From Escherichia phage GEP101: a stretch of 64,000 nucleotides of DNA. The translations under genes were made by a program, and so were the position numbers. Position 1 is the first letter of the stretch. Each line of letters begins with the position of its first letter. The DNA is taken from the sequence record PQ036202; one strand, 5' to 3'. Below the pieces are notes generated by a model. The model saw only the letters and a program-made list of their open reading frames with translations. It was not told the origin of the DNA and made no database searches. Positions 3,914 through 49,272 of the stretch are shown here, piece by piece.

Positions 3914-4215
3914 AATGACCCCAAAGTTATATTAAATTTTGTATTACATTGAGTATAAAAATAAGCTATAACACCTGACTTGTCAACAGACTTTATAGCT
4001 TATTTGGCAGATTTTTTATAAGGCTACTGCCATCCTTCCATACATTACCTTACCTTACCTTACCAGACCACACCATGCAAAACCAGACTTCACATCACCC
4101 GACTGTGCAATACTTCACTTAAAAACCCTCTTAAAAGACTCTTAAGTGATGCTGGTGAGTACCCGTTGGTTTATGCTGCTCAGTATACTCACCAAATTTT
4201 CTATGTCAACAACTT

Positions 4216-5316
4216 TTATTCATAATCTCGTATAACTAACCCAACAGGGAACTGTAAAGAACCTTTACGAGTCATCTTCTGGAACTGAACCGTCAAAGGT
4301 TTCCCGATAAACTCTTCAGGATGTTCAGCAAGATACTGTTTCTTCTCATGAGTAGTCTTCCATGAGACATCTACAAAGACGTTAGGAAGAGTCTCTACAA
4401 CGAACTTGCCATGACCACGTTTATCGGTCTTTACACCAGTCACTTTAAACTCTTCAGTGTGCATCTTCTTGTGCTTAATCAAGAAGTATGAACGGTGACA
4501 ACACTCATAGAAGGAGTCTTCAGAGATTGAACGGTACATTGCACCTTCAAACTGAGCTTCAACCCACTTATCATGGGCTTCATCAAACTCTTCCCAAGAA
4601 TTTACACGACGAGACTTAACAGGAACAACTTTACAGCCATCTCTGAAGTCATTCAATGGTGAAGTCTCAATAATGTCTCTACGCTCAGGCCACGTCTTAG
4701 TACTGTCACAAATATCGTACCAGTAGAACTGGAGTAGATGTCGGTCTGGATTGTCAGCATTCTTAATCATAGACACAATATCTTCTAAGTCCCAACCATG
4801 AGCATAAATCTCACCATCAAAGTCTTCGACTTGTGGATGCAATTTAAGCAACAAAAGCAAATCTGGGATTAGTTCTGCTGGGACGTTGTAAATAGTATTC
4901 TCACGAGAATAAGCCGTGAAGCTAACTAAATCAGCATCTCTTGAAATTCTACAACGAACACCATCAAGTTTCGGTTGAGCATCAGCAGGGAACTTCAAAT
5001 ACTTTGCATGACTAACCTTTGCAGCATCATGAGCAAGCTGCACACCTACCTTCTCAGTATTCTGTGCAGACTCTTTTGTGTAAGCATAACCTTTGCGTTC
5101 AACTTGCTTTTTATACTTAGCAGCAACTTCAAAGAGAGCTTGCTGTTCAGCGTTACGCTCATTCTTTTTACCGATGTTTTTAGGTTCTGCTGTATACTCT
5201 TCAAACATCATCTTGCCATTTTCTTTACCGTAGGTTGTAATAACTTTGTCACCTACAGCAACGCATGACCAGACGTTAAAAGAGCCGTCTTTATTTTGTT
5301 TGTACAGTATTGTCAT
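4216..5316 (-). CDS. ATP-dependent DNA ligase
   Basis: Adenylation motif I KLDGVR (PKLDGVRC); 366 aa. Confidence 0.8.
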   Translation of the reverse strand: MTILYKQNKDGSFNVWSCVAVGDKVITTYGKENGKMMFEEYTAEPKNIGKKNERNAEQQALFEVAAKYKKQVERKGYAYTKESAQNTEKVGVQLAHDAAKVSHAKYLKFPADAQPKLDGVRCRISRDADLVSFTAYSRENTIYNVPAELIPDLLLLLKLHPQVEDFDGEIYAHGWDLEDIVSMIKNADNPDRHLLQFYWYDICDSTKTWPERRDIIETSPLNDFRDGCKVVPVKSRRVNSWEEFDEAHDKWVEAQFEGAMYRSISEDSFYECCHRSYFLIKHKKMHTEEFKVTGVKTDKRGHGKFVVETLPNVFVDVSWKTTHEKKQYLAEHPEEFIGKPLTVQFQKMTRKGSLQFPVGLVIRDYE

Positions 5317-7790: not shown

Positions 7791-9960
7791 AAATGCCATT
7801 TTTGGCTTTCTTACGACCTTTTGTAATCTCGTGAAGAAGCTCCTCATCCTGCGTCTCCCTACAACGAACAATATCATCTTCCTTGTTTAGACCAAAGTAA
7901 ATACTATTCAGTGTATGTGCATCAGTACCTGTGTAGACTTCGTAGAGGTCATTCTCAGCATCATAACGAAGATACTTATCAGTTTCTGGATTGAGGTACT
8001 TATCGAGATGCTTGCAATAGTATCTTCCATCCTCTTGCTTGGTAAATTCTACTGACTCTTTACCTTCAGTTACCGCTTTGGTGAAGTCTTTATCACCCAT
8101 AAAGTTACACAGTAAAACAAGCTGTGCAGAGTTCTGGTCAACTGAAACGATATTAGTCCCTTCCTCGCAAATCCACACCTCCCTCATAGGTGCTCCATAG
8201 ACAGCAGCACCAGACGGTACGTTTACAATACCATATTGTGTCATACGTCCAGTTGAAGTACCAAATACCATTGCACCGGCACTAAGGCGACCATCAGGGC
8301 GAATCTGGTTCAACCAACCTTTTTCATCATCCTTTGAGTTCTCAATAGTTCTACGTCGGTGCATCAAAGTGTAGTATTTCGCAATCTTCTGTCCAAGCTC
8401 ACCTTCAATCGTATCATAAGATGATTCAGTAAGTTTTGGTGAAGTACGGATTAAGCAAGGCTCAAGCAAATCTGTGTACTTCTTCACAGACCAGTTATGC
8501 TCAATGTACTGGACACCTTCATGTTCAACATAACTCAAACCACACCGTTCCACCATCTCATCCCACTTAGGATGCTTTGTAATCATCTTTTTGTTGTCTT
8601 TGAAACGACAAACTTTGACAGGACGACCGTCAGAGTCTTTCTTGTAGTTCCAGTCATCTGGAATCCAACCAACTGATTTCAAGTAGTCTTTAACAACTGC
8701 TACCTGAGTCATACGAGAAACTTCGAACTCAATTGGTGTATATGGTGCATCAATCAAACCTGTGTAGCGACTTGACTCAAGCTCAAAGTGGTTAACGACA
8801 TGGCTGTTATAGTACTTCACAGTTTTAACTGTTTTTACTGGCTTCCAGTCTTTGCACTTCTTACCAATCTTTGCATTCAACTCATTGCAAATTGCACGAG
8901 CATCCTTCATTGCTACAAAACCTTCCTTGTACTCTTCACCAGTTACAGAGTTGGTTGGTGTATAGCAATTCCGCTTTTCAATGTTAAAAATCTTTGTAGT
9001 TGGCTTACCAAATGGCTTGATTTCATATGTCTGCATCTCACCGTTACGTACCTGTTGACGATACTTTGTCTTAGGGTACTTGGTAATTCTTTTCAGTCCA
9101 TCTGCATGACCAAATGCTTCAACATACTCATTCCAAGCTTTTGCAAACTCTTCTCCAGTGACTTTACCTTTGGTCTTAATAGTTGGAGGAAGATGTGGTT
9201 CAACTTCTGAAGCAAGCTCATTAGTCAACTTGTCAAGTTCCTTTACATGAAACTCCATAAGCTCTTTATCAGCTTTCCAACCATTGATAGCCTGTTGACT
9301 CATCCAGAAAGATGTTTCTTTAGCTCGCATGTAAGTCTCATAAGTGTCTATACCACACTTCTTAAGCTTGAGATACTCGTTATCAAGTGCCCGTTTAGTT
9401 TTGGCGTTGATACGGATATCTTCCACAACACGAGTGAAGATTTCTGCATTCCACACACCCCAATGTTCAATCTCTGGTTTACGGACACCAACACGAGCAC
9501 CCCATGCTGCCAAGCCATGAGCACCTTTATAGCCCTTTGGAGTTGGTCTATCCATCCACTGAACACGAGACTGGATAAGAGAATCCTGAAAGAAATTACT
9601 CCACGGCTTACACTTTGGATTATCAAAGTTCCACAAATCAGGTGCAATGTGGTTGAAAACCCACCAGTCATAACCGAGACCGTTATGGATGCAAAGACGT
9701 TTTGCCTTTAACGCAAACTCAACACCTTCACGCAAACCACCCTTAATGTACTTGGTGTACTTGTGACCGAGGATAGGCTCATCTGTAAAGACCCATACAG
9801 GTGGCTCTTCATCGTCAGATTTATAGTCTGCGAAAGCCATGACGTGTACTTTAGTGAACTCAAGGAGTAAACCATCAGTTTCTGTATCACCAACTAAGTG
9901 TAAGTTTTTAAAATCTACGTTTTCCATTTCTACTCCCTCTAAATCATTAACCACATACAT
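7791..9960 (-). CDS. DNA polymerase I (family A) with 3'-5' exonuclease domain, exon 1
   Basis: Exo I motif DTETDG near N-terminus; motif B start RKKAKNGIY at exon end; track ORF 7744..9960 is read-through into intron. Confidence 0.8.
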
Positions 9961-28570: not shown

Positions 28571-29452
28571 ATGAAAACATCTATCCGTGTTACAGTTCAT
28601 TCACCAACTAAAGGGACTCATGAAGAAGAGTTTAACATCATCCAATTCCCTTCTGGTGAGATTGGTGGACACTTTTCACCAGAGTTTGTTGATTTTACTA
28701 CCTATGCAGCATCATCTATCAACAATGTGATTATGATTGTAAAAGGCTATGATAAAGATATATTGTTTGCTGTGGCACTTGCTAAAGAGGCAGTGGACAA
28801 CTTAGTACCTCATAAGTTTGCTATGAAGACTGTTATCTTTTACTATTTACCAAATGCACGTTATGACCGTCACATGTTTAAAGGTGATGCAGCAGCTTTG
28901 AAAGTGTTTGCACAACAGGTTAATGCAATGGGTTTTGATGCAGTCTGTGCAGTTGACCCTCACAGTTATGTGCCAGATAACCTGTTTAACTGCTTCCAGA
29001 GCATTCCTCAAAAGGAAATTGCAGTCCACTATGCAAATGACCCACTGGTTGATTACTTAGTAGCCCCAGATGCAGGTGCTTCTAAGAAGATTGCAGAAAC
29101 TGCTAAAGAAGTGGATAAACCATACATCACAATGTCTAAAGTACGTAACCTTAAGACTGGTGAAATTACTGGTATGCGAATCCTTGATGATGTTGATTTG
29201 ACCGATAAAACTGTTATGATTCTCGATGATATCTGTGATGGTGGTCGAACCTTCATAGAAGCAGCTAAACATCTTCGTGAAGCAGGTGCAAAACGTGTGG
29301 AACTCTATGTAACTCATGGTATCTTCTCTAAAGGTGTTGAAAACTTACTTGACAATGGTATTGACCATATCTACACTACAAACTCTTTAGGGGAAGCTAA
29401 AGACCGTGGCTTAACACATTATGCCCAAGTTACTGTAGCAAACCTTGATTAA
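28571..29452 (+). CDS. prs: ribose-phosphate pyrophosphokinase family protein (Prs-like; possible ADP-ribose pyrophosphokinase)
   Basis: PRPP-binding motif ILDDICDGGRT, VDPHS; start set at ATG 28571 with GAGAGAG RBS. Confidence 0.8.
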   Translation: MKTSIRVTVHSPTKGTHEEEFNIIQFPSGEIGGHFSPEFVDFTTYAASSINNVIMIVKGYDKDILFAVALAKEAVDNLVPHKFAMKTVIFYYLPNARYDRHMFKGDAAALKVFAQQVNAMGFDAVCAVDPHSYVPDNLFNCFQSIPQKEIAVHYANDPLVDYLVAPDAGASKKIAETAKEVDKPYITMSKVRNLKTGEITGMRILDDVDLTDKTVMILDDICDGGRTFIEAAKHLREAGAKRVELYVTHGIFSKGVENLLDNGIDHIYTTNSLGEAKDRGLTHYAQVTVANLD

Positions 29453-29497
29453 AACTTTATAGGGGCTTTTAAGCCCCATTTTGAGAGAGATTAAAAG

Positions 29498-31279
29498 ATG
29501 ACTAAATCACTTTATGCAGTGCCAGCAGGTTTAAACGCAGATGCTTACAAGGCATCACATATATATCAGTATCCAGATGCCACACAGTACCTTATGCTGA
29601 ACCTGACACCACGTAGTGATAAATGGTTTAACAGTCCTTTAGCCATTGACGGTGTAGTTGCTTTTGGTATTCAACGTTTTGTTAAAGATTATTTAATAGA
29701 CCACTGGAATGCCACCTTCTTTGAACGTGACAAAAAAGAAGCAATTGACGAAATCTTAGAAGTCATGAACGGTGTTCTGGGTAAAGATGCTATTGGTCGA
29801 GAACACTGGGAAGCACTACATGACTTAGGTTATCTACCAGTTGAAGTGTACGCTGTAGAAGAAGGCACAGTTGTACCTATGCGTGTACCAATGATTGTCT
29901 TCCAGAACACTGTTTCAGGTTTCCATTGGGTAGCTGGGTATCTGGAAGATGCTTTCTCTGCTGAGATTTGGAAGGCTTGTACCATTGCAACTATTGCATT
30001 GCACTACAAACGTATCTGTAAGAAGTGGTCTGACCTTACTTGTGACAATGACTTGCATTTGCCTTATCAGTGCCATGACTTTGCTATGCGTGGTATGTCT
30101 GGCTTTACTGATGACGCATTTAACGCTGTAGGCCACTTAACCAGCTTTAAAGGAACTGATAGCTTCCCTGCTGTATATACAGCTAAACGAATCTATGGAC
30201 AGTCCTACCCAATCTCTGATATTGGCAGCTCTGTACCAGCCACTGAACACTCTGTAATGTGTGCAAACATTGCTTGGGAAGGTGGTAATGAGTTGATTGA
30301 AGAAGAAAGACGCTTTAAAGGTGAGTTACAAACCTTCCGTCGTTTCTTAACAGAAACTTACCCAACTGGTATTGCAAGTGTTGTTTCAGACACTTATAAT
30401 TTCTGGAGAACTGTATCAGAAATCTTACCAGCACTTCGTAAAGAGATTATGGAACGTGATGGTAAACTGGTAATTCGTCCTGACTCTGGAGACCCTGTAC
30501 ATATTGTCACAGGTTATAAAGCAATCCACTTAGAGTGTGCTAAAAAGGCTTATTACGAACACCTAAGCAAGCTGGAAGCCAGCGACACAAAGTTGAATGC
30601 TGTTCTGAACATGAATCTTGAAGACATTCACTATATTATGGCTGGGTGGTTACGTACAGAAGGCTATGAAATGGTGGTTGACAGAGAAGACTTTGAAGTA
30701 GCTGATACAGTGCTTCTGAAAGATGCCTACATCAATGGCTCTGCAAACGTTGTAACACGTCCTGTAGCAGAGATTGATGGGGCTATTAAGACCCTGTATA
30801 ACATCTTTGGAGGGACTATCAACTCTAAAGGCTTTAAGGTACTGGATGAGCACATTGGCCTTATCTATGGTGACTCTATCACGTTGGAACGTGCAAACGA
30901 AATCCTGAAGCGTTTGTATGAAATGGGTTTTGCAAGCTCTAACGTAGTGTTTGGTGTAGGTTCTTACACTTACCAGTACATGACTCGTGACACCTTTGCA
31001 TTTGCTGTCAAAGCAACTCTTGCAAGCATTGGTGGTAAAGAGATTATGCTTGCAAAAGACCCTAAAACAGATAGCGGTGTTAAGAAGTCTGCTTTTGGTG
31101 GTGTAGCACCTATGTGGGATGGTGATAAGCTGAAAGCTGTAGATGGCTATGGATTCCAGAGCTTTGCAGATGTGCTTGAACATCCAGCTTGTGCTTTACG
31201 TTTAATCTTTAGTGACTCTGAGCAGTTCGGTTACACAACTCTTGGTGATATTCGAAATAATATTGACAAGCAGCTTTAA
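29498..31279 (+). CDS. nadV: nicotinamide phosphoribosyltransferase family protein (NadV/NAMPT-like)
   Basis: NAMPT-like motifs DAYKASHIYQYP, HDFAMRG, SFKGTDS, VPATEHSVM, VVSDTYN, IRPDSGDP; 593 aa. Confidence 0.8.
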   Translation: MTKSLYAVPAGLNADAYKASHIYQYPDATQYLMLNLTPRSDKWFNSPLAIDGVVAFGIQRFVKDYLIDHWNATFFERDKKEAIDEILEVMNGVLGKDAIGREHWEALHDLGYLPVEVYAVEEGTVVPMRVPMIVFQNTVSGFHWVAGYLEDAFSAEIWKACTIATIALHYKRICKKWSDLTCDNDLHLPYQCHDFAMRGMSGFTDDAFNAVGHLTSFKGTDSFPAVYTAKRIYGQSYPISDIGSSVPATEHSVMCANIAWEGGNELIEEERRFKGELQTFRRFLTETYPTGIASVVSDTYNFWRTVSEILPALRKEIMERDGKLVIRPDSGDPVHIVTGYKAIHLECAKKAYYEHLSKLEASDTKLNAVLNMNLEDIHYIMAGWLRTEGYEMVVDREDFEVADTVLLKDAYINGSANVVTRPVAEIDGAIKTLYNIFGGTINSKGFKVLDEHIGLIYGDSITLERANEILKRLYEMGFASSNVVFGVGSYTYQYMTRDTFAFAVKATLASIGGKEIMLAKDPKTDSGVKKSAFGGVAPMWDGDKLKAVDGYGFQSFADVLEHPACALRLIFSDSEQFGYTTLGDIRNNIDKQL

Positions 31280-39285: not shown

Positions 39286-39308
39286 AGGCTCCTTCGGGAG
39301 CCTTTTTC
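39286..39308 (+). terminator. rho-independent terminator (UUCG-loop type)
   Basis: AGGCTCC-TTCG-GGAGCCT then TTTTT. Confidence 0.65.
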
Positions 39309-40943: not shown

Positions 40944-41144
40944 ATGGCTGACTTCTGCAAAGATTGTGCTATCGAAATGTTCGGACGTGATACAGGGGAC
41001 TTAAAAGGTCTTATCACTGAAGATGACTTTAAAGCTGGCTATGCAATGCCAGTAATCTGTGAAGGTTGTGGATGTATCTGGGTAGACCACGAAGGACAAC
41101 GTGTAAAACCTTCAGAAGATAAAGAATCTTGGGAGAGATGCTAA
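40944..41144 (+). CDS. small Cys-rich protein
   Basis: CKDC...CEGCGC pattern; 66 aa. Confidence 0.4.
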   Translation: MADFCKDCAIEMFGRDTGDLKGLITEDDFKAGYAMPVICEGCGCIWVDHEGQRVKPSEDKESWERC

Positions 41145-41930
41145 ATGGGTATTGTAAAAATCATCAATGGGGATATCTTCTCCGCATTTGATAAAGGTAA
41201 GTTTGATATCATTGGTCACGGTTGCAACTGTATGAACTTAATGGGTGCAGGTATCGCTGACAAGATTTCTAAACTTTACCCAAAAGCATATGAGACTGAT
41301 ACAGAAGTTTATCTGTATGCAGGTGGTATAGGCCACAAACCCTGTGAAAATTTACTAGGTAATTTCTCTGTAGCACGTTTAGAACAAGGCCGTATAGCTA
41401 ACCTTTACACTCAGCTTAAGACTGGTAAAGATGCCCGATACAGTGCTTTAGAGTCATCTTTGAAACAGCTTAACAGATACTGTGAAGTCAATCAGTTGAA
41501 GAAAGTTGGGTTACCTATGATTGGCGCAGGTATCGGTGGGCTAGACCCTCAAGCCGTCACAGTTATCATTAATCAGGTGATGAAGAGCGTAGATGTTTAC
41601 CTGTATGTCTACGAGACAGAGATGTACAACGAGTTACACTCAGGTTGGAAGAACTACTGCGAACCGGAATACTTTGCAGGTGTAGTAACGTTCACAGACA
41701 ATACAGTTACCCTCTTCAGACGAAGAAAGGGTAAGGTACATCAAAGTAACCCTCCGGTTGAAAAGATGTCCCTAAGTAACGCTCTAGTTACCCACCTGTC
41801 GAAGAGCAATCACAGAATTGCCGTGACATTTGGCAGTGATGCAGATACGTATATCTATGCAAGAACTGATGAGGATGTTGAGGAAATTTTCTCTTCACAG
41901 GAAGTTACCTTCTTAGACGCAAAGAACTAA
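41145..41930 (+). CDS. macro-domain-like protein (putative ADP-ribose binding/processing)
   Basis: N-terminal INGDIF...DIIGHGCNCMNLMGAGIA resembles macro-domain core (GDIT...AIVNAAN...GGGV). Confidence 0.4.
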   Translation: MGIVKIINGDIFSAFDKGKFDIIGHGCNCMNLMGAGIADKISKLYPKAYETDTEVYLYAGGIGHKPCENLLGNFSVARLEQGRIANLYTQLKTGKDARYSALESSLKQLNRYCEVNQLKKVGLPMIGAGIGGLDPQAVTVIINQVMKSVDVYLYVYETEMYNELHSGWKNYCEPEYFAGVVTFTDNTVTLFRRRKGKVHQSNPPVEKMSLSNALVTHLSKSNHRIAVTFGSDADTYIYARTDEDVEEIFSSQEVTFLDAKN

Positions 41931-41989
41931 GAAACTCTGTAGGATATTCACAATAGACTAAGCCTTTCTTATCTGGTAAATTTTTCAGG

Positions 41990-42195
41990 TAAGGAGGGCT
42001 TTTTCATTTCAGGATTGTGCAGGTAGAGTTCTATAGAGAAATCTGTAGAGAGAATTTTGAACTCCAAAGAGAAAATTCATTTTCAAACTGTGCAGGTAAT
42101 CTCCAAAGAGCTTTTTCATTTTCAAAACGTGCAGAGAAAAATCAGGTCGGGCAAGAAAAATCATTTTAGAATTGTGCAGGTAGGTGGGTGCAGGT
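41990..42195. repeat. four ~40-bp direct repeats (TTTTCATTTTCAAA-CTGTGCAGGTA units)
   Basis: Repeated units beginning near 41990, 42060, 42102 and 42150, in a non-coding gap. Confidence 0.6.
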
Positions 42196-42359: not shown

Positions 42360-42452
42360 TTGACTATTCGAACGGGGTTATCTAGTATTTGCATCAACGG
42401 GGAGGAAATGACTTCCCCACTAAATAAAACCCTTAAACTAGGAGATTCTAAA
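42360..42452 (+). promoter_or_regulatory. promoter-hairpin-RBS cassette (type A, divergent copy)
   Basis: TTGACT-17-TAGTAT, GGGGAGG...CTTCCCC hairpin, conserved CCTTAAACTAGGAGATTCTAAAATG. Confidence 0.55.
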
Positions 42453-42644
42453 ATGGCATCAAGAAAAATCAAAGTTGGCGACGAGGTTAACGTAAAACAT
42501 GAATACTCTTACAAAATGTTAACTATTCGCTCTTACAAGGTTTATCAGGTGGAAGCTATCCACGAAGATGGAACATTTTCACTAAAAGGATATAGTGAAC
42601 GTTTCCCTGCTGAATTGTTCGAAAAATGGAGCACTAAAAAATGA
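42453..42644 (+). CDS. hypothetical small protein (cassette-array gene)
   Basis: Start reassigned to ATG 42453 behind conserved RBS. Confidence 0.55.
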   Translation: MASRKIKVGDEVNVKHEYSYKMLTIRSYKVYQVEAIHEDGTFSLKGYSERFPAELFEKWSTKK

Positions 42645-42847
42645 TTTACAGCCGTGAATTGATGGCCACAACTAACGTTAACACAAAGGTAAAACGTTTT
42701 TATATGCAAGTATGCGGCGCATGGCGTAGAATATCAGAATCTGACTATTGCAACTATGTAGAAACGGCTATTAATTCTAATTGCTATCTTACAAGAACTA
42801 CACGGAATTTTATAAAACATACAGCGGTTTACTATTACGATAAATAA
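42641..42847 (+). CDS. hypothetical small protein (cassette-array gene)
   Basis: ATGA start/stop overlap with previous gene. Confidence 0.45.
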   Translation: MIYSRELMATTNVNTKVKRFYMQVCGAWRRISESDYCNYVETAINSNCYLTRTTRNFIKHTAVYYYDK

Positions 42848-42935
42848 AAAGTACTTTACAAGGGGCTTAAAAGTTGATATCTTAAGCCCCAGAAAAAGAG
42901 CTTTACTAACAACCTTAAACTAGGAGATTCAAAAA
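42848..42935 (+). promoter_or_regulatory. type B intergenic element (palindrome + conserved RBS leader)
   Basis: AAAGTACTTTACA, 9-bp-stem palindrome GGGGCTTAA...TTAAGCCCC, AGAAAAAGAGCTTTA, CCTTAAACTAGGAGATTC; four copies. Confidence 0.5.
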
Positions 42936-43316
42936 ATGGCTTATCGTGCACCGAAATTCATCAACAAAGACAACTTTCGCAACGTACTGGAAAAGACACT
43001 TGATGAAAAATTTAACAGCAAATTGATTGTTGTTCACGCATTTAATTTCAAGTATGATATCAACGGGAATAAAATCAATCATTACACGGCAACAATGGTA
43101 GATGGTACACTATCAAGTGAAAAAGCCATACTGAATGCGCTTGCTGGACGTGGTAAAAACCTGATAAGATGTGATAAGAGACGTTATCAAGGCGGCGCAT
43201 ATGGTTATGATGATACTGTTTACCATCTTGAAAATATGGGCTATCAAGTAGAAAAAGCTGGAGTGTCGCAAATCATTGGTAGCGATGGTTATGTGACAAT
43301 CTTCAAAATTAAATAA
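42936..43316 (+). CDS. hypothetical protein (cassette-array gene)
   Basis: 126 aa behind type B element. Confidence 0.5.
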   Translation: MAYRAPKFINKDNFRNVLEKTLDEKFNSKLIVVHAFNFKYDINGNKINHYTATMVDGTLSSEKAILNALAGRGKNLIRCDKRRYQGGAYGYDDTVYHLENMGYQVEKAGVSQIIGSDGYVTIFKIK

Positions 43317-43405
43317 AAAGTACTTTACAGGGGGCTTATAAGGCTGTACAGTAAGCCCCAGATAAAGAGCTTTATCACTCAATCCTTAAACTAGGAGATT
43401 CAAAA
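43317..43405 (+). promoter_or_regulatory. type B intergenic element
   Basis: Copy 2 of palindrome + leader. Confidence 0.5.
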
Positions 43406-43918
43406 ATGAAAACTGTAGACGCTACCTTTGAAGTTGTAAAAGAAAAATTCACCATTATTTATGAGGCTGTTAATTGCTACGAAGCAAGCTATAATATGGA
43501 TAATTGGGAATTTACAAACAACCATAAAGGCGGGGTAACTATCAAAAATCCTAACTATCGACACAATGCATTTAAATATGCAATCCCTTTACATTACAGC
43601 CTAAAACAGCTTTCAAGTGACTATGCAAAACAAGGCCGTGAAAATCCATCGAAAGAGGCTTACATCAGCTTACAGAAAGAACTAGAAAGAGATTTAGAGG
43701 CTTCAGAATATTACCTATCTGCAAAAGTTGTAGACGCAAACGGGAAAACGGTTTTAGATAGTTTTTCTATTGGTTACGCTTTCGATTGGTGCTATAGCGA
43801 CGGCGTCGATTTAGCGGATAGACTAGAAGAGGAAGTGAGCAATTCAGGCGCAGAATCTGAAGTTATGGAACAATTAGAAGCCTTAAAAGATTCAGTGCTG
43901 AATATCTTTCAAAATTAA
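43406..43918 (+). CDS. hypothetical protein (cassette-array gene)
   Basis: 170 aa. Confidence 0.5.
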   Translation: MKTVDATFEVVKEKFTIIYEAVNCYEASYNMDNWEFTNNHKGGVTIKNPNYRHNAFKYAIPLHYSLKQLSSDYAKQGRENPSKEAYISLQKELERDLEASEYYLSAKVVDANGKTVLDSFSIGYAFDWCYSDGVDLADRLEEEVSNSGAESEVMEQLEALKDSVLNIFQN

Positions 43919-43934
43919 ATTAAGAGGAAACACC

Positions 43935-44267
43935 ATGTTAATGATGGGTATCACTGCAATCATCGCCATTATAGCACTTTACAAGGCTTATAGCGCATAT
44001 AATTTGGCAAGTAAGGCAATCACACAACAGGTTAGCGATAGCCTTGTAATGAGCTTTCTTGGGCGTTTAAGCGATGAGCAATTGAAACGGCTAGAAATGA
44101 GCTTCAGATTTCAATCAAAAACTTATCAAATCAGCGACATTTTCAAAGAGGATTTTCAGCTTGTCGATGATTATAACTCCCTGATAAATGCTTTAAATAT
44201 CAGTGACTTAAAAGATTATTACGCTGTAATTGTTCAAGAAATGAGCAAACGAAAACAAAACAGTTGA
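43935..44267 (+). CDS. hypothetical protein (cassette-array gene), N-terminal TM helix
   Basis: 110 aa, own AGAGGAAA RBS. Confidence 0.45.
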   Translation: MLMMGITAIIAIIALYKAYSAYNLASKAITQQVSDSLVMSFLGRLSDEQLKRLEMSFRFQSKTYQISDIFKEDFQLVDDYNSLINALNISDLKDYYAVIVQEMSKRKQNS

Positions 44268-44356
44268 CACTGATTTTTAGATATATTAAATTACACATCA
44301 ACGGGGAGGGAATGACCTCCCCCACTAAGTAAAACCTTAAACTAGGAGATTCAAAA
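44264..44356 (+). promoter_or_regulatory. promoter-hairpin-RBS cassette (type A)
   Basis: TTGACA-17-TAAATT, hairpin GGGGAGGGAATGACCTCCCCC, identical RBS/start context. Confidence 0.55.
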
Positions 44357-44629
44357 ATGTATACTACTAACAATGGCCGTACTCTAAATGTCACTCTACG
44401 CCACTATGTAGACGGCGTGATGAACTTTGAGGATTTACAAGCGGAACAACATATTTTGGATTGGCAACTTGCTGGATTCCAAAAAACTGCTACGGGATAT
44501 GGTAAAAAGATTCCAACTAGTTGGAAAGTATACTATAAAGGCCGTTTGCGCAGAATTTATCAGGATGTTTGCAGCAATAGCGCATCAACCTACATCATAG
44601 TAAAAGGTAAAAAATTACACTTAGTATAG
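44357..44629 (+). CDS. hypothetical small protein (cassette-array gene)
   Basis: 90 aa. Confidence 0.5.
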   Translation: MYTTNNGRTLNVTLRHYVDGVMNFEDLQAEQHILDWQLAGFQKTATGYGKKIPTSWKVYYKGRLRRIYQDVCSNSASTYIIVKGKKLHLV

Positions 44630-44717
44630 AGTACTTTATAAGGGGCTTATAGTTCGATAAAGTAAGCCCCAGAAAAAGAGCTTTATCGCATTAACCTTAA
44701 ACTAGGAGATTCAAAAA
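44630..44717 (+). promoter_or_regulatory. type B intergenic element
   Basis: Copy 3. Confidence 0.5.
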
Positions 44718-45122
44718 ATGGCTATCAATAAACGCGAGTTATCAATTTTAAAAGCACGTTTGACCGTTAACCGGATTAATGTTATCACGTCAGCAGCACC
44801 GGATGAAATACTACAAAACATTATTGGGAAGATTCAAAGTGTTATCTTAGACGTTGAAAGCGTAAAAAACTCACTGATTGACGTTGCAGCAGGTATCACG
44901 CTAGAAGGTGCACAATATGAAATGGTGGACATGTTAGGTAAATCTAAGGTAATGAATAGGGAGTTAGATTTGAAAATGTTTCGTTTTGCTGTTAAAGTAT
45001 GGCTATCCGTCGAGTATGGCGCGAATTTTGCAATCGCTGACTTTTTCGCAACATGGTTACAACGTAATTTGACAAATCATGATTTTCGTGATATCTGCGA
45101 TGCAATTTATGCAGAAATCTAA
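44718..45122 (+). CDS. hypothetical protein (cassette-array gene)
   Basis: 134 aa. Confidence 0.5.
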   Translation: MAINKRELSILKARLTVNRINVITSAAPDEILQNIIGKIQSVILDVESVKNSLIDVAAGITLEGAQYEMVDMLGKSKVMNRELDLKMFRFAVKVWLSVEYGANFAIADFFATWLQRNLTNHDFRDICDAIYAEI

Positions 45123-45132
45123 AAATTTTTTA

Positions 45133-45227
45133 TTGACACTGATTTTTAGATATATTAAATTACTAATCAACGGGGAGGGAATGACCTCCCCCACTAAGTA
45201 AAGTCCTTAAACTAGGAGATTCTAAAA
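45133..45227 (+). promoter_or_regulatory. promoter-hairpin-RBS cassette (type A)
   Basis: Near-identical to 44264-44356. Confidence 0.55.
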
Positions 45228-45425
45228 ATGGCTATTATTAACGGTTTAAACATTGAAACTACTCACATCAAAGATATCAAAGTCGGCGATATAGTCCTTT
45301 TTCACGGCGTAGAAAAAACCGTCACTGTAAAGGATATCAAAGAGGATTCTTTCATGGGCCGGACTCTTTTCGGTGATTCGTATTGCTTAGGCTATCTTGC
45401 AGTTTTAAAAGTTGTCAAAAATTAA
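45228..45425 (+). CDS. hypothetical small protein (cassette-array gene)
   Basis: 65 aa. Confidence 0.45.
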   Translation: MAIINGLNIETTHIKDIKVGDIVLFHGVEKTVTVKDIKEDSFMGRTLFGDSYCLGYLAVLKVVKN

Positions 45426-45518
45426 ATAAAAAGTACTTTACAGGGGGCTTAAAAGCTGATATCTTAAGCCCTAGATAAAGAGCTTTATCACTCAATCCTT
45501 AAACTAGGAGATTCTAAA
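45426..45518 (+). promoter_or_regulatory. type B intergenic element
   Basis: Copy 4. Confidence 0.5.
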
Positions 45519-46061
45519 ATGAAATGCTTTCACGGTACTACTCAAGAAAATTTTATCAACCTGATTAATAACGGTGATAAACCATCAGGCGCATGGAATT
45601 GTTCGGATATGGACGGGAATTTTTACGTTTATCCAGAAAATAAAATCTATGGCGACGATGAGGAAGAGATAATCTCTGAAGGTATCCAGCAAGCTCTGGG
45701 CAATGCCGCTATCACCGCAGCTTTCCAGATGAAAACTCAAAATATTGTTATCTTAGAACTTGATATTCCAGAAGATGAGTTAAATGATGATTATTCTTGC
45801 GATAATATGTCGAACATGGCAAGTTTTACGGAATATTTCGATTTAAACTGGATTAAAAAGGTTTATACCACTGAATTTAATGCTATGTTTTCGCCTTTTT
45901 GTCTTCCTTCACTGGATAACCCAAATTTAAATTATATTGATGAGTCTCTGGAACTTCTCGCTAAAAGCGTTCAACAGTTCGACAGTATTCAAGTTTTTTG
46001 GGACATCATGGACACACTGACGGGAAACATCGCAGAAAGAGATTTAAAGGGCTTTTTCTAA
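45519..46061 (+). CDS. hypothetical protein (cassette-array gene)
   Basis: 180 aa, acidic. Confidence 0.5.
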   Translation: MKCFHGTTQENFINLINNGDKPSGAWNCSDMDGNFYVYPENKIYGDDEEEIISEGIQQALGNAAITAAFQMKTQNIVILELDIPEDELNDDYSCDNMSNMASFTEYFDLNWIKKVYTTEFNAMFSPFCLPSLDNPNLNYIDESLELLAKSVQQFDSIQVFWDIMDTLTGNIAERDLKGFF

Positions 46062-46091
46062 AACCTATACAATCACCTTATAAACACTATT

Positions 46092-46113
46092 CAGCCCCTT
46101 GTAGGGGCTTTTA
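46092..46113 (+). terminator. rho-independent terminator
   Basis: AGCCCC-TTGT-AGGGGCT then TTTT. Confidence 0.55.
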
Positions 46114-46126
46114 AAGGGCTTAAAAC

Positions 46127-46360
46127 ATGCTTACAACCATTTATCTCATCCTTTCTATCTGTAACGGTCATTCATGTGATTTTAAAGGTCTCGAGGAGTT
46201 TACAGGGAGTAAAGAAAATGCTATTCAGGTTTGCCAGATAGCAAGACAAGACTACCCCGCCAGTGATGATATACAATGTTATTTTAAGACAGAAGACAGT
46301 GACGGCGTTTATTTTGACAGTGTTGACGGTCAATATGAAATTATCATAGAAAAAGACTAG
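46127..46360 (+). CDS. hypothetical small protein (cassette-array gene)
   Basis: 77 aa. Confidence 0.45.
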   Translation: MLTTIYLILSICNGHSCDFKGLEEFTGSKENAIQVCQIARQDYPASDDIQCYFKTEDSDGVYFDSVDGQYEIIIEKD

Positions 46361-46451
46361 ACAAGCCGGATAAAAGTCTGTAAATTACTAATTAACGGGG
46401 AGGGGATGACCTTCCCCACTAAGTAAAGCCCTTAAACTAGGAGATTCAAAA
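46358..46451 (+). promoter_or_regulatory. promoter-hairpin-RBS cassette (type A variant)
   Basis: TAGACA-17-TAAATT, hairpin GGGGAGGGGATGACCTTCCCC, conserved RBS. Confidence 0.5.
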
Positions 46452-46793
46452 ATGGCTTATGTAACCGTAATCACCGACAAGGTTGGCTCATCTTGGTCAA
46501 CTCAAGTAAGCGATAAGATGACACCTATGCAGTGCCTAAAATACTTTGAGCAATGGAATAAAGGCGAAGGTGTCAGCCCCTTTCAAGTGATGCGTATCGT
46601 TCACACTGACAAGGAAGGGAATAAAACGGCCTTAAATAGTGAGTACTACGCAACCAGATTCGAAACTAGAAGTAAAACAATGAAACTTTTACGTGAATCC
46701 GGTTATACCCATATCGCCGCATTAATCTGGGATGACTTGCTAAAAAACCAACGTATCAGCTATGTAAAACCTGAAAAAATATTTATCAGCTAA
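46452..46793 (+). CDS. hypothetical protein (cassette-array gene)
   Basis: 113 aa. Confidence 0.5.
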   Translation: MAYVTVITDKVGSSWSTQVSDKMTPMQCLKYFEQWNKGEGVSPFQVMRIVHTDKEGNKTALNSEYYATRFETRSKTMKLLRESGYTHIAALIWDDLLKNQRISYVKPEKIFIS

Positions 46794-46824
46794 TCAATAA
46801 CTTACAAAAAACTTTTAAAAAAGT

Positions 46825-46850
46825 GTTGACAATACCCCTTGACATTGGTA
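46825..46850 (+). promoter_or_regulatory. tandem TTGACA element (GTTGACAA-N5-CTTGACA)
   Basis: Same double-hexamer architecture as 9986 and 57046. Confidence 0.4.
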
Positions 46851-46923
46851 ATGTTGTTCGAGGGGGGTTTATCTAAAAGGGATTAACTTAAAAGATTCTT
46901 TATAGATAAACTTAAAAAATTGC

Positions 46924-47017
46924 TTGCAATCAGCTATCAAAACAAGTAAATTACTAATTAACGGGGAGGGGATGACCTTCCCCACTAAGTAAAGTCCTTA
47001 AACTAGGAGATTCAAAA
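46924..47017 (+). promoter_or_regulatory. promoter-hairpin-RBS cassette (type A variant)
   Basis: TTGCAA-17-TAAATT, hairpin, conserved RBS. Confidence 0.5.
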
Positions 47018-47548
47018 ATGAACAAGTTCAAAGCCATCAATTACATCCGCTCAAATAGTGTTATGTCAAAGCCTGTTAAAGACACCTATGAATTCCGTTG
47101 TAATGGTGTACACTTTGCAACCATCACCAAATCAGAAAACGGGGCTTATTACATTCATCGCCGTAATGTTGCAACCGTTGTAGTCTCTCATTTTATGCAA
47201 GCTGTCGCGGAACTCCTCCCGATGTTTTTAGGCCTTTACTTGGATGAGTGCAAAAACGTTCACAATCACGTTAAAAACCTTTTAAATAGTTATAAAATGG
47301 CTTATGAACGTTCTCTCAAGTCATTGAACAAGTTTTACAACGCACCTGAAAACACCATATCAATGGCCTATGCTGTAAATGGTGAAACAGTGAGTCTCTT
47401 TGAAGTGGAAAAAATCAAGCTGTACGATTTACTCCCTAGCGGTTACGCTAAAACCATCGGTGAAGGCTTAACGTTCAATATCAAGAACTTAGAAAAAACT
47501 TTAAAAGATATTGAAAAAGATATTGACGAGACAATCAAAAATCTATAA
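47018..47548 (+). CDS. hypothetical protein (cassette-array gene)
   Basis: 176 aa; last gene before non-coding repeat region. Confidence 0.5.
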   Translation: MNKFKAINYIRSNSVMSKPVKDTYEFRCNGVHFATITKSENGAYYIHRRNVATVVVSHFMQAVAELLPMFLGLYLDECKNVHNHVKNLLNSYKMAYERSLKSLNKFYNAPENTISMAYAVNGETVSLFEVEKIKLYDLLPSGYAKTIGEGLTFNIKNLEKTLKDIEKDIDETIKNL

Positions 47549-49272
47549 ATTGTCAATCAACGGGGCTAAAATAGCCCCAGATACCTTTTACAGCCCCTTT
47601 CCATATTGATTCGATAGAATCTATCTCATAGGGGCTTTTTTACGTCCTATCAAATCCCTTTCCCTTTCCCTTTCCAGAATCTATCCCACTAATTCGATAG
47701 AATCTATCTCATACCTTAAAAAGCAATAACTCTATAGCTTACTCTATAGCCTTTTATTAAATCAACTTAAATAAAAGCCAATACCCCCAGAAAGGGGATG
47801 GCCCATTTAAACGCTCTATAAAGCCCTATAACGGCCTTATTAACATAACTTAAGGGATTGCATTAACTCACCATTAAAAGCCCTTTATAAAGCTTTCTAG
47901 GGGCTTAAAAGAGCCTTAAAAGAATCTTATAAGGGTGTAAGCTTTATCATCTCGTTAGTTATCTTATTGGCATTGTTACAATTCCTAGTGAACTACTAAA
48001 AAGGGCTTGCTAGTGTCTTAAAAGTATGTTATAGGGGCTATAAAGTTGCTTAAAAGTAGCTTAAAAGTTACTTCAAAGTTACTTCAAAGTTACGTAAATG
48101 CTAGCCCCCTTAACAATTTCTTAACAAATCCTACAAAGTTATGCTTATTAGAGACTTGTTAGCAACTTGTTAGCCCCTTGTTAAATCTCTGTTAAAACCA
48201 TGTAAAGCCTTGTAAGAACCTTTGACATAGCCTTTAAAGCTCCTGAAAAGCCCTATAAAGAGCTTTCTACATAGTTGGGGTGCAATTACTAGGGAGAGAC
48301 TAAAAAGGGCTTATAAAGAGCTATAGAGAGCTTTTAAGAGGGCTATTTAAAGAATCACTAAGAGGGAAAGGGAACGATAAGAAAGAGATAGTGACCATGT
48401 TAATGGCTTGTTAAAAAGTTTAAACACTTGTTAGAAACTTGTTAATTATCTTAACAAAATAACTCTTAAAAATTAACTTCTTAACTCTTGTTAGTCATCT
48501 GTTAAGACTCTGTAAAGACCATGTAGCAACTGTTAAGGAACTGTTACATCCTTGTTAGTTCTGTTGAGAATCTGTTAAGACCTTTGAAGAGTTGTTAAGA
48601 AGATGTGAGAACTGTTAAGAGATTGTTAATGATATTTTAAAATTTTGCAAAGGGGGTGTTACAGGGATGTTAAGGGCTACCAAGCAGATATACATCTTTT
48701 ACAGATATTTTTGAGTTCCTTCAAAGACCCTAAAAAATGACTTGATAGTCCTATTTTATAAAAATTTTAAAATTCTGAATAATTACCTATACAGTCTTCT
48801 AAAAATACAGGCATAAACAGGCTTATAAGATACCTTGTTAATACCGTGTTAGACCTTGTGAGATAAGGTCTGCAAAGATATTCCTGTTAAGTTTGTTAAA
48901 ACAGTCTATATAGAGGCTTAGTAATACCTAGTGAACACCTATAGAGGGTAACATAGCTGACATAGAGATTAAGAGGTGTATAGGGGCTTCTAAGAGGTTA
49001 TAGAGAGATGGTTAAGGTGATTGTATAGGTTGTTAAGAAGGCTTGTTAGAAGAGTGTTTAGAAGGGCTATACAGAGGGGCTATTAAGACCACTAGATAGA
49101 TACTAAGATACTATATAGTACTATATAACTATATATAGAGAGTAAGCTTAAGAAGGTTGTTAAGAAGGGTAGATATTTTTATTCACATATGATGGTGACC
49201 CAGAGGTTGGGACAACCGATGAAATTTTATAAAAATTAAAAAGCCCCCAATTAAGGAGGCTCTTAAGATATT
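47549..49272. repeat. 1.7-kb ORF-free region with arrays of ~11-bp phased short motifs
   Basis: No ORF of 60 aa or more on any frame; TGTTAAG/TGTTAGC-type runs at ~11-bp spacing (48150-48200, 48400-48650), TATAAAGAG/TAAGAGG runs (48240-48360, 48910-49140), 11-bp x5 repeat at 48030-48100, 21-bp direct repeat at ~47608/47693, (CCCTTT)3. Confidence 0.7.

Follow-up and report, generated by a model that had tools for sequence, protein, structure and literature searches.

A gene of the Felix O1-like phage GEP101 is predicted to encode a two-domain macro-domain enzyme with a lysine-independent active site

Results

Gene organization

The window analyzed in this study is a stretch of 64,000 nucleotides from Escherichia phage GEP101 (sequence record PQ036202), which is a Felixounavirus (Felix O1-like phage). 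The gene of interest is an open reading frame (ORF) of 261 amino acid residues (aa) on the plus strand, which starts from ATG at position 41145 and terminates at TAA (41928–41930). The ORF list contains no overlapping competitor of at least 40 aa on either strand. The gene product (hereafter, the macro protein) shares 95% identity (249 of 261 residues) with bas63_0095 of phage Bas63 in BLASTP. In public records, the gene already carries labels such as phosphatase and macro-domain protein. In some records the label is O-acetyl-ADP-ribose deacetylase, which was transferred by homology. A search of the literature for Felixounavirus or Bas63 macro proteins found none. The features of the locus are summarized in Table 1.

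Table 1. Features of the macro protein gene and its surroundings in the window
Feature	Position	Strand	Basis or remark
NARP1 NAD+ reconstitution operon, ~10 kb upstream	28571–31279	+	Pfam; identity to Bas63
Adps	28571–29452	+	80% identity to Bas63 gene 79
Namat	29498–31279	+	96% identity to Bas63 gene 80
Upstream ORF of 66 aa, CxxC...CxxC (zinc-ribbon-like)	40944–41144	+	ORF list; PHROG 2210, unknown function
Complete gene; encodes a two-domain ortholog of bas63_0095 (annotated as "putative phosphatase")	41145–41930	+	ORF list, BLASTP, PHROG 335
Macro domain, residues 1–160	41145–41624	+	PF01661, PDB profile matches, Foldseek, T4 Tk.4 homology
H25-G-C-N28-C29 motif	41217–41231	+	Invariance, alignment, literature
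G34-A35-G36, first glycine loop of ADP-ribose pocket	41244–41252	+	Conservation
N86-L-Y-T89-Q90	41400–41414	+	Invariance, HMM alignment to TARG1, alignment
P124-M-I-G-A-G-I-G-G132, second (diphosphate-binding) glycine loop	41514–41540	+	Conservation, HMM alignment to TARG1
β-rich C-terminal domain, residues ~165–261	41637–41927	+	Separate from macro domain
Terminator-like hairpin and T-run, 30 nt past stop	41960–42011	+	Consensus scan

The stop codon of the 66-aa ORF adjoins the ATG of the macro gene, and the neighbors of the macro gene are small ORFs without Pfam matches. In the consensus scan, the terminator-like site preceding the one in Table 1 is located at 39286–39303, before the spanin genes. 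The macro gene is the predicted last gene of its transcription unit. The gene is followed by 430 nt of non-coding sequence, in which an Rfam scan gave no match. At another locus (L005), a different CxxC...CxxC ORF of 63 aa overlaps the start of a macro homolog with 35% identity. A polynucleotide kinase gene is located 2.3 kb upstream of the macro gene, and this arrangement is found in all relatives.

The upstream operon is orthologous to genes 79 and 80 of Bas63, which are the experimentally validated NARP1. Namat ends at position 31279 and the macro gene starts at 41145; the Bas63 equivalents are 0079/0080 and 0095, respectively. In all Ounavirinae examined, approximately 20 genes and terminator-like sites lie between NARP1 and the macro gene. 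Because these genes and sites intervene, the macro gene is not coupled to NAD+ reconstitution as part of an operon. However, NARP1 and a two-domain macro protein occur together in Felixounavirus, Mooglevirus, Suspvirus and Kolesnikvirus. The original prediction had linked the macro protein to an NAD+-related gene pair upstream. This link is plausible: the pair is NARP1, for which macro phosphatases are known accessories, but the macro gene belongs to a separate transcription unit approximately 10 kb away.

The N-terminal region is a macro domain

The N-terminus had been proposed, by eye, to resemble the ADP-ribose-binding core of macro domains. The motif on which this proposal was based (INGDIF...DIIGHGCNCMNLMGAGIA) corresponds to residues 7–38 of the protein. 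Profile searches and structure prediction bore out the proposal. Pfam Macro (PF01661) matched residues 25–141 with an E-value of 1.2e-7 and covered 116 of the 118 model positions; the score (32.1 bits) is above the curated gathering cut-off (22 bits). The protein also matched PHROG 335 (E = 2.5e-112). When the family profile was compared with the PDB, TARG1 (E = 8.7e-17), Mycobacterium tuberculosis DarG (E = 4.7e-16), Poa1p (E = 1.8e-15) and Streptomyces coelicolor SCO6735 (E = 3.6e-15) were matched. The AlphaFold2 model (pLDDT 87.6, pTM 0.87) possesses the three-layer α/β/α macro fold. Foldseek with this model matched TARG1 (4j5r) and Thermus aquaticus DarG (5m3e), both with an E-value of 5.5e-9, and Poa1p (E = 3.1e-7); the target TM-scores were 0.81, 0.73 and 0.74 for TARG1, DarG and Poa1p, respectively. 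The likeness to the macro domain is far beyond chance. The locus is predicted to encode a macro (ADP-ribose-binding) domain enzyme. The motif of the original prediction lies within the macro part, which is limited to the first ~160 residues; residues ~165–261, the replacement of Lys by Gln in the active site and the existing public labels of the gene were missed.

Active-site residues

We analyzed conservation in a set of 32 homologs with identity down to 27%. No variation was observed at H25, G26, N28 and C29, and N86, T89 and Q90 were also invariant. There are two glycine-rich loops, G34-A-G36 and G127-A-G129-I-G-G132. In the first, G36 is invariant, and G34 and A35 are at least 90% conserved; in the second, P124, G127 and G129 are invariant. 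Residues 30–35 have a pLDDT below 50 in the AlphaFold2 model, and the first loop is probably mobile. Because H25, N28, T89, Q90, G127 and G129 do not change in the 32 homologs, we consider that the protein has a conserved catalytic site.

In alignments, N28 is placed in the column of N22 of DarG and N23 of phiKZ AdfM. In contrast, Q90 is aligned with the catalytic Lys (K80 in DarG, K84 in TARG1 and K78 in phiKZ AdfM). Furthermore, the HMM alignment places G131 at the position of D125 in TARG1. The K84/D125 dyad is thus replaced by Q90/G131, and we rejected a TARG1-type Lys/Asp mechanism. Gln is also found at the Q90 position in Tk.4 of phage T4 and Adpp of Vibrio phage Gary. In SCO6735 (PDB 5e3b), Gln85 takes the place of K84 of TARG1 and K80 of DarG, together with His24 and Asn27 (PMC9411070). 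SCO6735 removes thymidine-linked ADP-ribose from DNA, and a Q85A substitution inactivates it (PMC9411070). H25 and N28 of the macro protein correspond to His24 and Asn27 by transitive alignment via TARG1 and DarG. The predicted active site, which comprises H25, N28 and Q90 and would be lysine-independent, matches the SCO6735 type. Both proteins have an ALC1/TARG1-like macro domain with Gln in place of Lys and His and Asn nearby, and both are free-standing and unpaired with DarT. However, SCO6735 is a bacterial single-domain protein, its mobile loop is longer and its surface is electropositive.

The C-terminal domain

Relatives of the C-terminal domain were not found outside the Ounavirinae protein family, either by sequence or by fold. 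This domain is acidic, whereas the macro domain has almost no net charge (+0.6), and a conserved basic patch is absent. These properties give no particular indication of DNA binding. The C-terminal domain may bind a target or a partner.

Comparison with known macro-domain proteins

T4 Tk.4, which is AdfM (anti-DarT factor Macrodomain), shares 34% identity with residues 3–157 of the macro protein (E = 7e-24) and also belongs to PHROG 335 (E = 1.3e-65). The HGCNC, NLYTQ and IGAGIG motifs and the Gln for Lys replacement are common to the two proteins. In contrast, Tk.4 is a single domain of 155 aa, and the macro protein carries an additional C-terminal domain of approximately 100 aa. T4 is not known to encode NARP1. 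The evidence on Tk.4 is genetic and comes from T4 only: a tk.4 knockout sensitises the phage to DarTG2 (preprint, bioRxiv 10.1101/2025.11.20.689424).

Adpp (KNV71_gp137) of Vibrio phage Gary is a NARP1-associated ADPR-1′′P phosphatase (bioRxiv 10.64898/2026.01.28.702374). Like the macro protein, Adpp is a Poa1p-like member of PHROG 335 with Gln at the same position, encoded by a phage that possesses NARP1. However, it has HQCNC and NVYGQ motifs, consists of a single domain and is encoded inside the NARP1 operon, whereas the macro gene is approximately 10 kb away.

DarG (PDB 5m3e, 5m3i) and phiKZ gp104 AdfM share the macro fold and the Asn equivalent to N28, and were among the top structural matches; they differ in retaining the catalytic Lys. 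AdfM of phiKZ is a phage macrodomain that removes DarT2 marks from DNA, and is thus a biochemical precedent (PMC13309987). We rejected membership in the DarG family itself. The score with the NCBIfam model NF048014 (47.8 bits) falls far short of its cut-off (250), with only model positions 4–151 of 338 aligned, and the PADLOC DarG model gave 47.9 bits as compared with 132.9 bits for phiKZ AdfM. In addition, the catalytic Lys is replaced by the invariant Q90, the DarT-binding C-terminal domain of DarG is absent (no HMM coverage past the macro domain), and there is no adjacent darT gene.

Yeast Poa1p and human TARG1/OARD1 are cellular enzymes of the pathways for a tRNA-splicing by-product and for protein/DNA de-ADP-ribosylation. 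Both (PDB 6lfq/6lfr and 4j5r) are in the same macro subclass as the macro protein by profile and fold. Poa1p possesses an H-x-C-N-C motif like that of the macro protein, but has Ser at the Q90 position.

We also surveyed bacterial homologs. In total, 479 loci were found and 80 were fetched; the macro ORF could be called in 73 of the 80. The HGCNC-type homolog is free-standing in these 73 loci. No recurrent neighbor was detected in the 80 fetched loci, where the largest neighbor cluster had three members, and DarT was not seen among the neighbors examined. NADAR, ARH (ADP-ribosylglycohydrolase), NrtR-Nudix and Prs-like genes were sporadic neighbors.

Discussion

We propose, with a probability of roughly 0.85, that the macro protein belongs to the Tk.4/Poa1p-like phage group (PHROG 335) and is a catalytically active hydrolase, which cleaves at C1′′ by a lysine-independent mechanism. 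In this mechanism, the macro domain would bind an ADP-ribose derivative and remove the group on C1′′ of the distal ribose, so that free ADP-ribose is released. Catalysis would depend on H25, N28, Q90 and the two glycine loops, as in SCO6735. The original prediction had suggested reversal of ADP-ribosylation or processing of ADP-ribose derivatives as the function, and the roles of T4 Tk.4 (AdfM) and Gary Adpp support this suggestion.

As to the biological role, we tentatively favor counter-defence against DarT2-type toxins, although we put its chance at somewhat less than even. By analogy with Tk.4, the substrate would be DarT2-modified phage DNA: the macro protein would strip ADP-ribose from thymidines marked by DarT2 on single-stranded phage DNA, and replication and packaging could then proceed. 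This role is supported by the fact that Tk.4 is the top-scoring studied relative (81 bits, over the whole domain). The active-site motifs in common with Tk.4, the SCO6735-type residues, the phiKZ AdfM precedent and the separation of the gene from NARP1 are in line with it. On the other hand, the identity to Tk.4 is only 34%, the charge of the two domains gives no hint of DNA as a target, and DarT was not seen beside the bacterial homologs examined. Moreover, Gary Adpp, which is 35% identical to Tk.4, is an ADPR-1′′P phosphatase. The phage's own NARP1 would benefit from such a phosphatase. Similarity and the neighbor-joining tree did not separate AdfM from Adpp: the tree is star-like, and the Ounavirinae clade groups with neither Tk.4 nor Adpp. 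Neither net charge nor pI was informative. As candidate substrates, DarT2-modified DNA and ADPR-1′′P are not distinguished by sequence or phylogeny.

It is possible, but rather doubtful, that the macro protein is an Adpp-like ADPR-1′′-phosphate phosphatase acting in trans with NARP1 of the same phage. The RES-domain defences (aRES) convert NAD+ to nicotinamide and ADPR-1′′P, which NARP1 cannot use. The macro protein would remove the 1′′-phosphate, and Adps and Namat would rebuild NAD+ from the resulting ADPR. In the study of Adpp, the accessory found most often with NARP1 is a Poa1p-like macro protein, and Gary Adpp produces ADPR from ADPR-1P and is needed against aRES (bioRxiv 10.64898/2026.01.28.702374). 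Several of our results are consistent with this idea. GEP101 possesses an operon orthologous to the validated one of Bas63, the macro protein shares PHROG 335 with Adpp and matches Poa1p by both profile and Foldseek, and NARP1 co-occurs with the two-domain macro protein in the genera named above. Furthermore, the NARP1-adjacent macro protein of PAK_P1 scores 76 bits, as compared with 81 bits for Tk.4, and a NARP1-adjacent macro protein of Acinetobacter carries the corresponding motifs, HGCNC and NAYTQ. In addition, aRES is found in E. coli, Klebsiella and Enterobacter. On the other hand, the only assayed Adpp is 27% identical to the macro protein (53 bits), which is below Tk.4, and this Adpp and the Pseudomonas group possess HQ[CA]NC and N[LV]YGQ instead of HGCNC and NLYTQ. 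The position of the macro gene, downstream of NARP1 in another transcription unit with conserved separation, also argues against the idea, since the published criterion for association is a distance within two genes. Moreover, Escherichia and Salmonella phages are absent from the published table (bioRxiv 10.64898/2026.01.28.702374).

The Adpp-like and DarT2 proposals are compatible, because both reactions cleave the C1′′ substituent. One protein might accordingly cleave both ADP-ribosyl-thymidine and ADPR-1′′P and supply ADP-ribose to NARP1 for NAD+ synthesis, with a non-enzymatic C-terminal domain that would bind the toxin or tether the enzyme to replicating DNA. We regard such a dual-target factor as unlikely. 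The toxin-binding C-terminal domain of DarG is unrelated to that of the macro protein.

Similarly, it is improbable that the enzyme hydrolyzes another 1′′-linked ADP-ribose conjugate or signal, such as ADP-ribosylated RNA (CmdTAC-type), proteins, O-acetyl-ADP-ribose or Thoeris signals (for example, His-ADPR). The ADPR set free might feed NARP1. Macrodomains are promiscuous across such substrates, and a survey favors small ADPR derivatives as the main targets of phage macro proteins (PMC9503650). RyDEP, an accessory enzyme which converts immune signals to ADPR for NARP1, is a precedent (PMC13232231), and a macro domain reads His-ADPR in type II Thoeris. The NADAR, ADP-ribosylglycohydrolase and NrtR-Nudix genes beside some bacterial homologs and the O-acetyl-ADP-ribose deacetylase labels point in the same direction. 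However, these labels were transferred by homology, and the two studied members of the subfamily point instead to DarT2 and ADPR-1′′P.

Because the canonical catalytic Lys and the Asp of TARG1 are missing, we considered whether the macro protein binds ADP-ribose without catalysis, as a sponge, or inhibits a defence protein stoichiometrically through its C-terminal domain, with the macro domain as a ligand sensor. Catalytic mutants of SCO6735, DarG and TARG1 still inhibit DarT by interaction (PMC9411070), and the conserved orphan C-terminal domain could serve as a binding module. However, the catalytic His, Asn and Gln of SCO6735 are all invariant in the macro family and Gary Adpp is an active enzyme with the same Gln, so a non-catalytic role is very unlikely. 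Finally, housekeeping RNA repair, in which the macro protein would remove ADPR-1′′P formed by a Tpt1/KptA-type 2′-phosphotransferase together with the polynucleotide kinase encoded nearby, fits the Poa1p-like profile and fold and the conserved kinase gene, but it is highly improbable because the T4-type pathway of PNK/ligase repair is not known to yield ADPR-1′′P, and neither Tpt1/KptA nor a 2H phosphoesterase was seen among the neighbors examined.

Experimental roles for PHROG 335-type phage macrodomains date from 2025–2026, when AdfM was connected with DarTG2 and Adpp with aRES. In the ordinary case, the gene would be one further AdfM or Adpp homolog. The Felix O1-like version is nevertheless a good test case, because it combines a T4-type active site with NARP1 in one phage, and the conserved extra domain without known relatives adds to this value. 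The ortholog lies in Bas63, which is amenable to genetic work and is where NARP1 was first found, and the gene occurs in hundreds of Salmonella and E. coli phages that are candidates for therapy.

The macro gene encodes a macro-domain protein

The window belongs to a Felix O1-like myovirus (Ounavirinae, Felixounavirus), with 95-96% nucleotide identity to Salmonella phages S19cd and Seyj1-1. A Shine-Dalgarno-like GGGAGAG lies 8-14 nt 5′ of the ATG of the macro gene, and no competing ORF of at least 40 aa overlaps the gene on either strand. Its product is 98.9% identical to the counterpart in Salmonella phage HMD-P8 and 95% identical (249/261) to bas63_0095 of BASEL phage Bas63 (JohannRWettstein). 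In public records the gene is named "phosphatase", "putative phosphatase", "O-acetyl-ADP-ribose deacetylase" or "macro domain protein". A literature search on the Felixounavirus or Bas63 macro protein found no paper.

The original prediction compared a motif, which corresponds to residues 7-38, with the ADP-ribose-binding core of macro domains. This resemblance was borne out by profile, sequence and structure matches. Pfam PF01661 matched with near-complete model coverage (E 1.2e-7; 32.1 bits, gathering cut-off 22) and PHROG 335 ("phosphatase") with an E-value of 2.5e-112. A PDB search with the single sequence returned TARG1/OARD1, DarG and coronavirus Mac1, and a 32-homologue profile matched TARG1 (8.7e-17), Mycobacterium tuberculosis DarG (4.7e-16), yeast Poa1p (1.8e-15) and SCO6735 (3.6e-15). 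The AlphaFold2 model (pLDDT 87.6, pTM 0.87) was matched by Foldseek to TARG1, DarG and Poa1p (E 5e-9 to 3e-7, target TM-scores 0.7-0.8). Therefore, a macro fold is predicted for this protein, and the likeness is statistically solid. The macro domain is real, but its annotation predates this analysis and the family has characterised members. The gene is conserved and looks expressed, and its product has the macro fold and belongs to the Tk.4/Poa1p-like phage group.

Features of the macro gene region
Feature	Coordinates	Strand	Remarks
Adps	28571-29452		80% identical to Bas63 gene 79
Namat	29498-31279		96% identical to Bas63 gene 80
CxxC...CxxC (zinc-ribbon-like) ORF, PHROG 2210	40944..41144		66 aa; stop codon directly abuts macro gene ATG
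Macro gene ORF	41145..41930	+	intact, 261 codons, ATG to TAA
Macro domain	residues 1-160		
Four-copy repeat	41995-42179		unit ~28-34 nt, copies 39-67 nt apart
Cassette family 1	42381-47565		~75 nt; copies at 42381, 44286, 45155, 46380, 46946, ~47546
Cassette family 2	42836-45524		~107 nt; copies at 42836, 43305, 44616, 45418
Short direct repeats	47730-49175		~1.4 kb, 11-nt spacing

The active site has glutamine in place of the catalytic lysine

Among the 32 homologues, down to 27% identity, H25, G26, N28, C29, G36, A38, P46, G72, N86, T89, Q90, P124, G127 and G129 are invariant. In an alignment with reference enzymes, N28 falls on DarG N22 and phiKZ AdfM N23. The column of the catalytic lysine (DarG K80, TARG1 K84, phiKZ AdfM K78) holds the invariant Q90, and that of TARG1 D125 holds G131. 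Glutamine also occupies the Q90 column in T4 Tk.4, Bacteroides BT1257 and all NARP1-associated phage macros. In Streptomyces SCO6735, the residue concerned is Gln85, described as "equivalent to Lys84 in TARG1 and Lys80 in DarG"; the Q85A mutant has no activity, Asn27 is also needed and His24 is located at the active site (PMC9411070). Despite this glutamine, SCO6735 efficiently removes thymidine-linked ADP-ribose from DNA (PMC9411070). By transitive alignment, we infer that H25, N28 and Q90 correspond to His24, Asn27 and Gln85. Thus, judged by its residues, the active site is of the Gln type described for SCO6735.

The C-terminal domain is found only behind this macro domain

When 1.84 billion representative proteins were searched exhaustively with a profile, the C-terminal domain, the second of the protein's two domains, occurred only fused behind this macro domain, apart from gene-call fragments. 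It is kept in distant homologues down to about 17-25% identity. P174 and G179 are its sole invariant residues and Y236 is nearly invariant; the RRRKGK patch that the window's protein has is not conserved.

The macro gene co-occurs with NARP1 without adjacency

The macro gene is the last of a tightly packed unit between terminator-like hairpins (39286-39303 and 41960-42001). The other members of this unit are the CxxC ORF, both spanin genes and four small genes from PHROGs without known function. The CxxC ORF is possibly a small, conserved partner of the macro gene. In a distant relative (L005) with a 35% identical macro protein, the start codon of the macro gene is overlapped by a different CxxC...CxxC ORF of 63 aa (7810-8001); in another relative, L004, an unrelated 103-aa ORF takes this place.

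The NAD+-related gene pair noticed 10 kb upstream in the original prediction proved to be Adps and Namat, the NARP1 operon. In Bas63 the corresponding genes were shown to counter SIR2-HerA and to restore NAD+, for which they use ADPR and nicotinamide (10.1101/2024.02.11.579819). In the window, just like in Bas63, the two genes are neighbours (gap 29453-29497); HMD-P8, Felix O1 and VpaE1 are among the phages with an inserted gene for an HNH homing endonuclease between them (comparison locus L001, 456-947). Bas63 and HMD-P8 keep the order NARP1, rIIA, rIIB, ..., SLT, PNK, ..., spanins, (0-5 small ORFs), macro. Erwinia phage phiEa21-4 keeps it too: its homologue, 42% identical across the part of the macro domain that was matched, comes straight after the spanins, with NARP1 about 9 kb 5′ of it on a circularly permuted map. 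Metagenomic relatives with 35-36% identical proteins keep the order from rIIA to macro; as their loci begin inside rIIA, the comparison covers this segment. Thus, the macro gene co-occurs with NARP1 but is not adjacent to it.

Repeats lie downstream of the macro gene

The four-copy repeat, TTTTCATTT(T)CA...(G/T)TGTGCAG, comes immediately 3′ of the macro gene's terminator-like hairpin, within a stretch of 430 nt that has no convincing ORF. The Bas63 annotation places two minus-strand ORFs of 51-52 aa there, and an Rfam scan of the stretch gave no match. Two families of intergenic cassettes recur in the small-gene array that follows. Family 1 has a GGGGAGG...CCTCCCC hairpin and then TAAACTAGGAGATTC-AAAAATG (Shine-Dalgarno plus start); family 2 contains TACTTTACA(A/G)GGGGCTTA and resembles a promoter. 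Apparently, every small gene has a reused regulatory cassette of its own. The dense short direct repeats farther on (GCTTAAAAG, CTTGTTAG and TGTTAAGA types, with several inverted repeats) may represent an origin-like array or one that binds proteins.

HGCNC-type relatives in bacterial loci

HGCNC-type relatives occur at 479 loci in the genome collection. We surveyed the neighbours in 73 of 80 fetched loci, those with a callable macro ORF. The proteins are mostly free-standing (about 151 aa), and among the neighbours examined there was neither a recurrent gene nor a DarT; only NADAR, ADP-ribosylglycohydrolase, NrtR-Nudix and Prs-like genes appeared sporadically. In a 9.8-kb MAG contig filed as bacterial (L024, DAORGW010000032.1; macro match 4001-4414), a 269-aa Prs/Adps-like phosphoribosyltransferase ORF with below-threshold Pfam scores (22.7 and 20.6 bits) follows the HGCNC-type macro gene with zero gap. 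This pair is probably a phage NARP1-AP-like module. In a Victivallales MAG (L017; macro match 4001-4492), the start of the HGCNC-type macro gene shares 4 nt with the gene upstream, which encodes a NADAR domain (Pfam E 1.8e-37); this operon pairs both known DNA de-ADP-ribosylase folds.

Possible functions

We consider it likely (probability roughly 0.85) that the protein is a hydrolase that frees ADP-ribose from a C1′′-linked substituent as a counter-defence. The substituent would be N3 of thymidine if the enzyme acts against DarT2 like AdfM, or phosphate if it acts like Adpp. Because both reactions cleave at C1′′, they are not mutually exclusive.

T4 tk.4 was the single match in a transposon screen for growth on DarTG2, its clean knockout sensitises T4, and it was renamed adfM; ADP-ribose removal from DNA by the T4 protein is a proposal (bioRxiv 10.1101/2025.11.20.689424). 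phiKZ gp104 strips DarT2 marks off an oligonucleotide in vitro (PMC13309987). gp104 is a true DarG-like, Lys-type macro and reaches 133 bits with the DarG model, compared with 48 bits for the window protein; the NCBIfam DarG model matches the latter with an E-value of 1.2e-12, but at 47.8 bits, far under the 250-bit cut-off. We tentatively rank the anti-DarT2 role first, because T4 provides the nearest studied homologue (81 bits, 34% identity over the macro domain) and the same motif set, because cleavage of ADPr-thymidine has been proven for a Gln-type enzyme, and because the macro gene and the NARP1 operon are consistently separate.

An Adpp-like role ranks second and is somewhat less probable. 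aRES, a defence with a RES domain, splits NAD+ into nicotinamide and ADPR-1′′P, and NARP1 cannot use the latter; a Poa1p-like macro lies within two genes of NARP1 in 15% of NARP1 phages, and Adpp of Vibrio phage Gary turns ADPR-1′′P into ADPR and is required against aRES (bioRxiv 10.64898/2026.01.28.702374). The phage's own NARP1 would profit from this reaction, and NARP1-adjacent macros are nearly as similar to the window protein as that of T4 (PAK_P1, 76 bits, 30% identity). Gary Adpp scores 53 bits (27% identity) against the window protein's macro domain, and T4 Tk.4 and Gary Adpp share 35% identity (77 bits). The window protein, T4 and an Acinetobacter NARP1-adjacent macro have HGCNC and N[LA]YTQ, whereas Gary and the Pseudomonas Adpp group have HQ[CA]NC and N[LV]YGQ; these motifs hint faintly at T4. 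The neighbour-joining tree is star-like; in it, the Ounavirinae proteins with two domains group as a separate clade, and neither of the characterised groups is its sister. Action on other ADPr conjugates or signals is improbable, and non-catalytic binding or RNA-repair housekeeping very unlikely.

PHROG 335 takes in the window protein and all studied phage relatives (T4 Tk.4, phiKZ gp104 and Gary Adpp). Three points are new here: a conserved orphan C-terminal domain is fused to the macro domain; the active site of this phage group is read as a Lys-to-Gln, SCO6735-type site; and AdfM and Adpp are recognised as one family, in which the window protein could be of either type.
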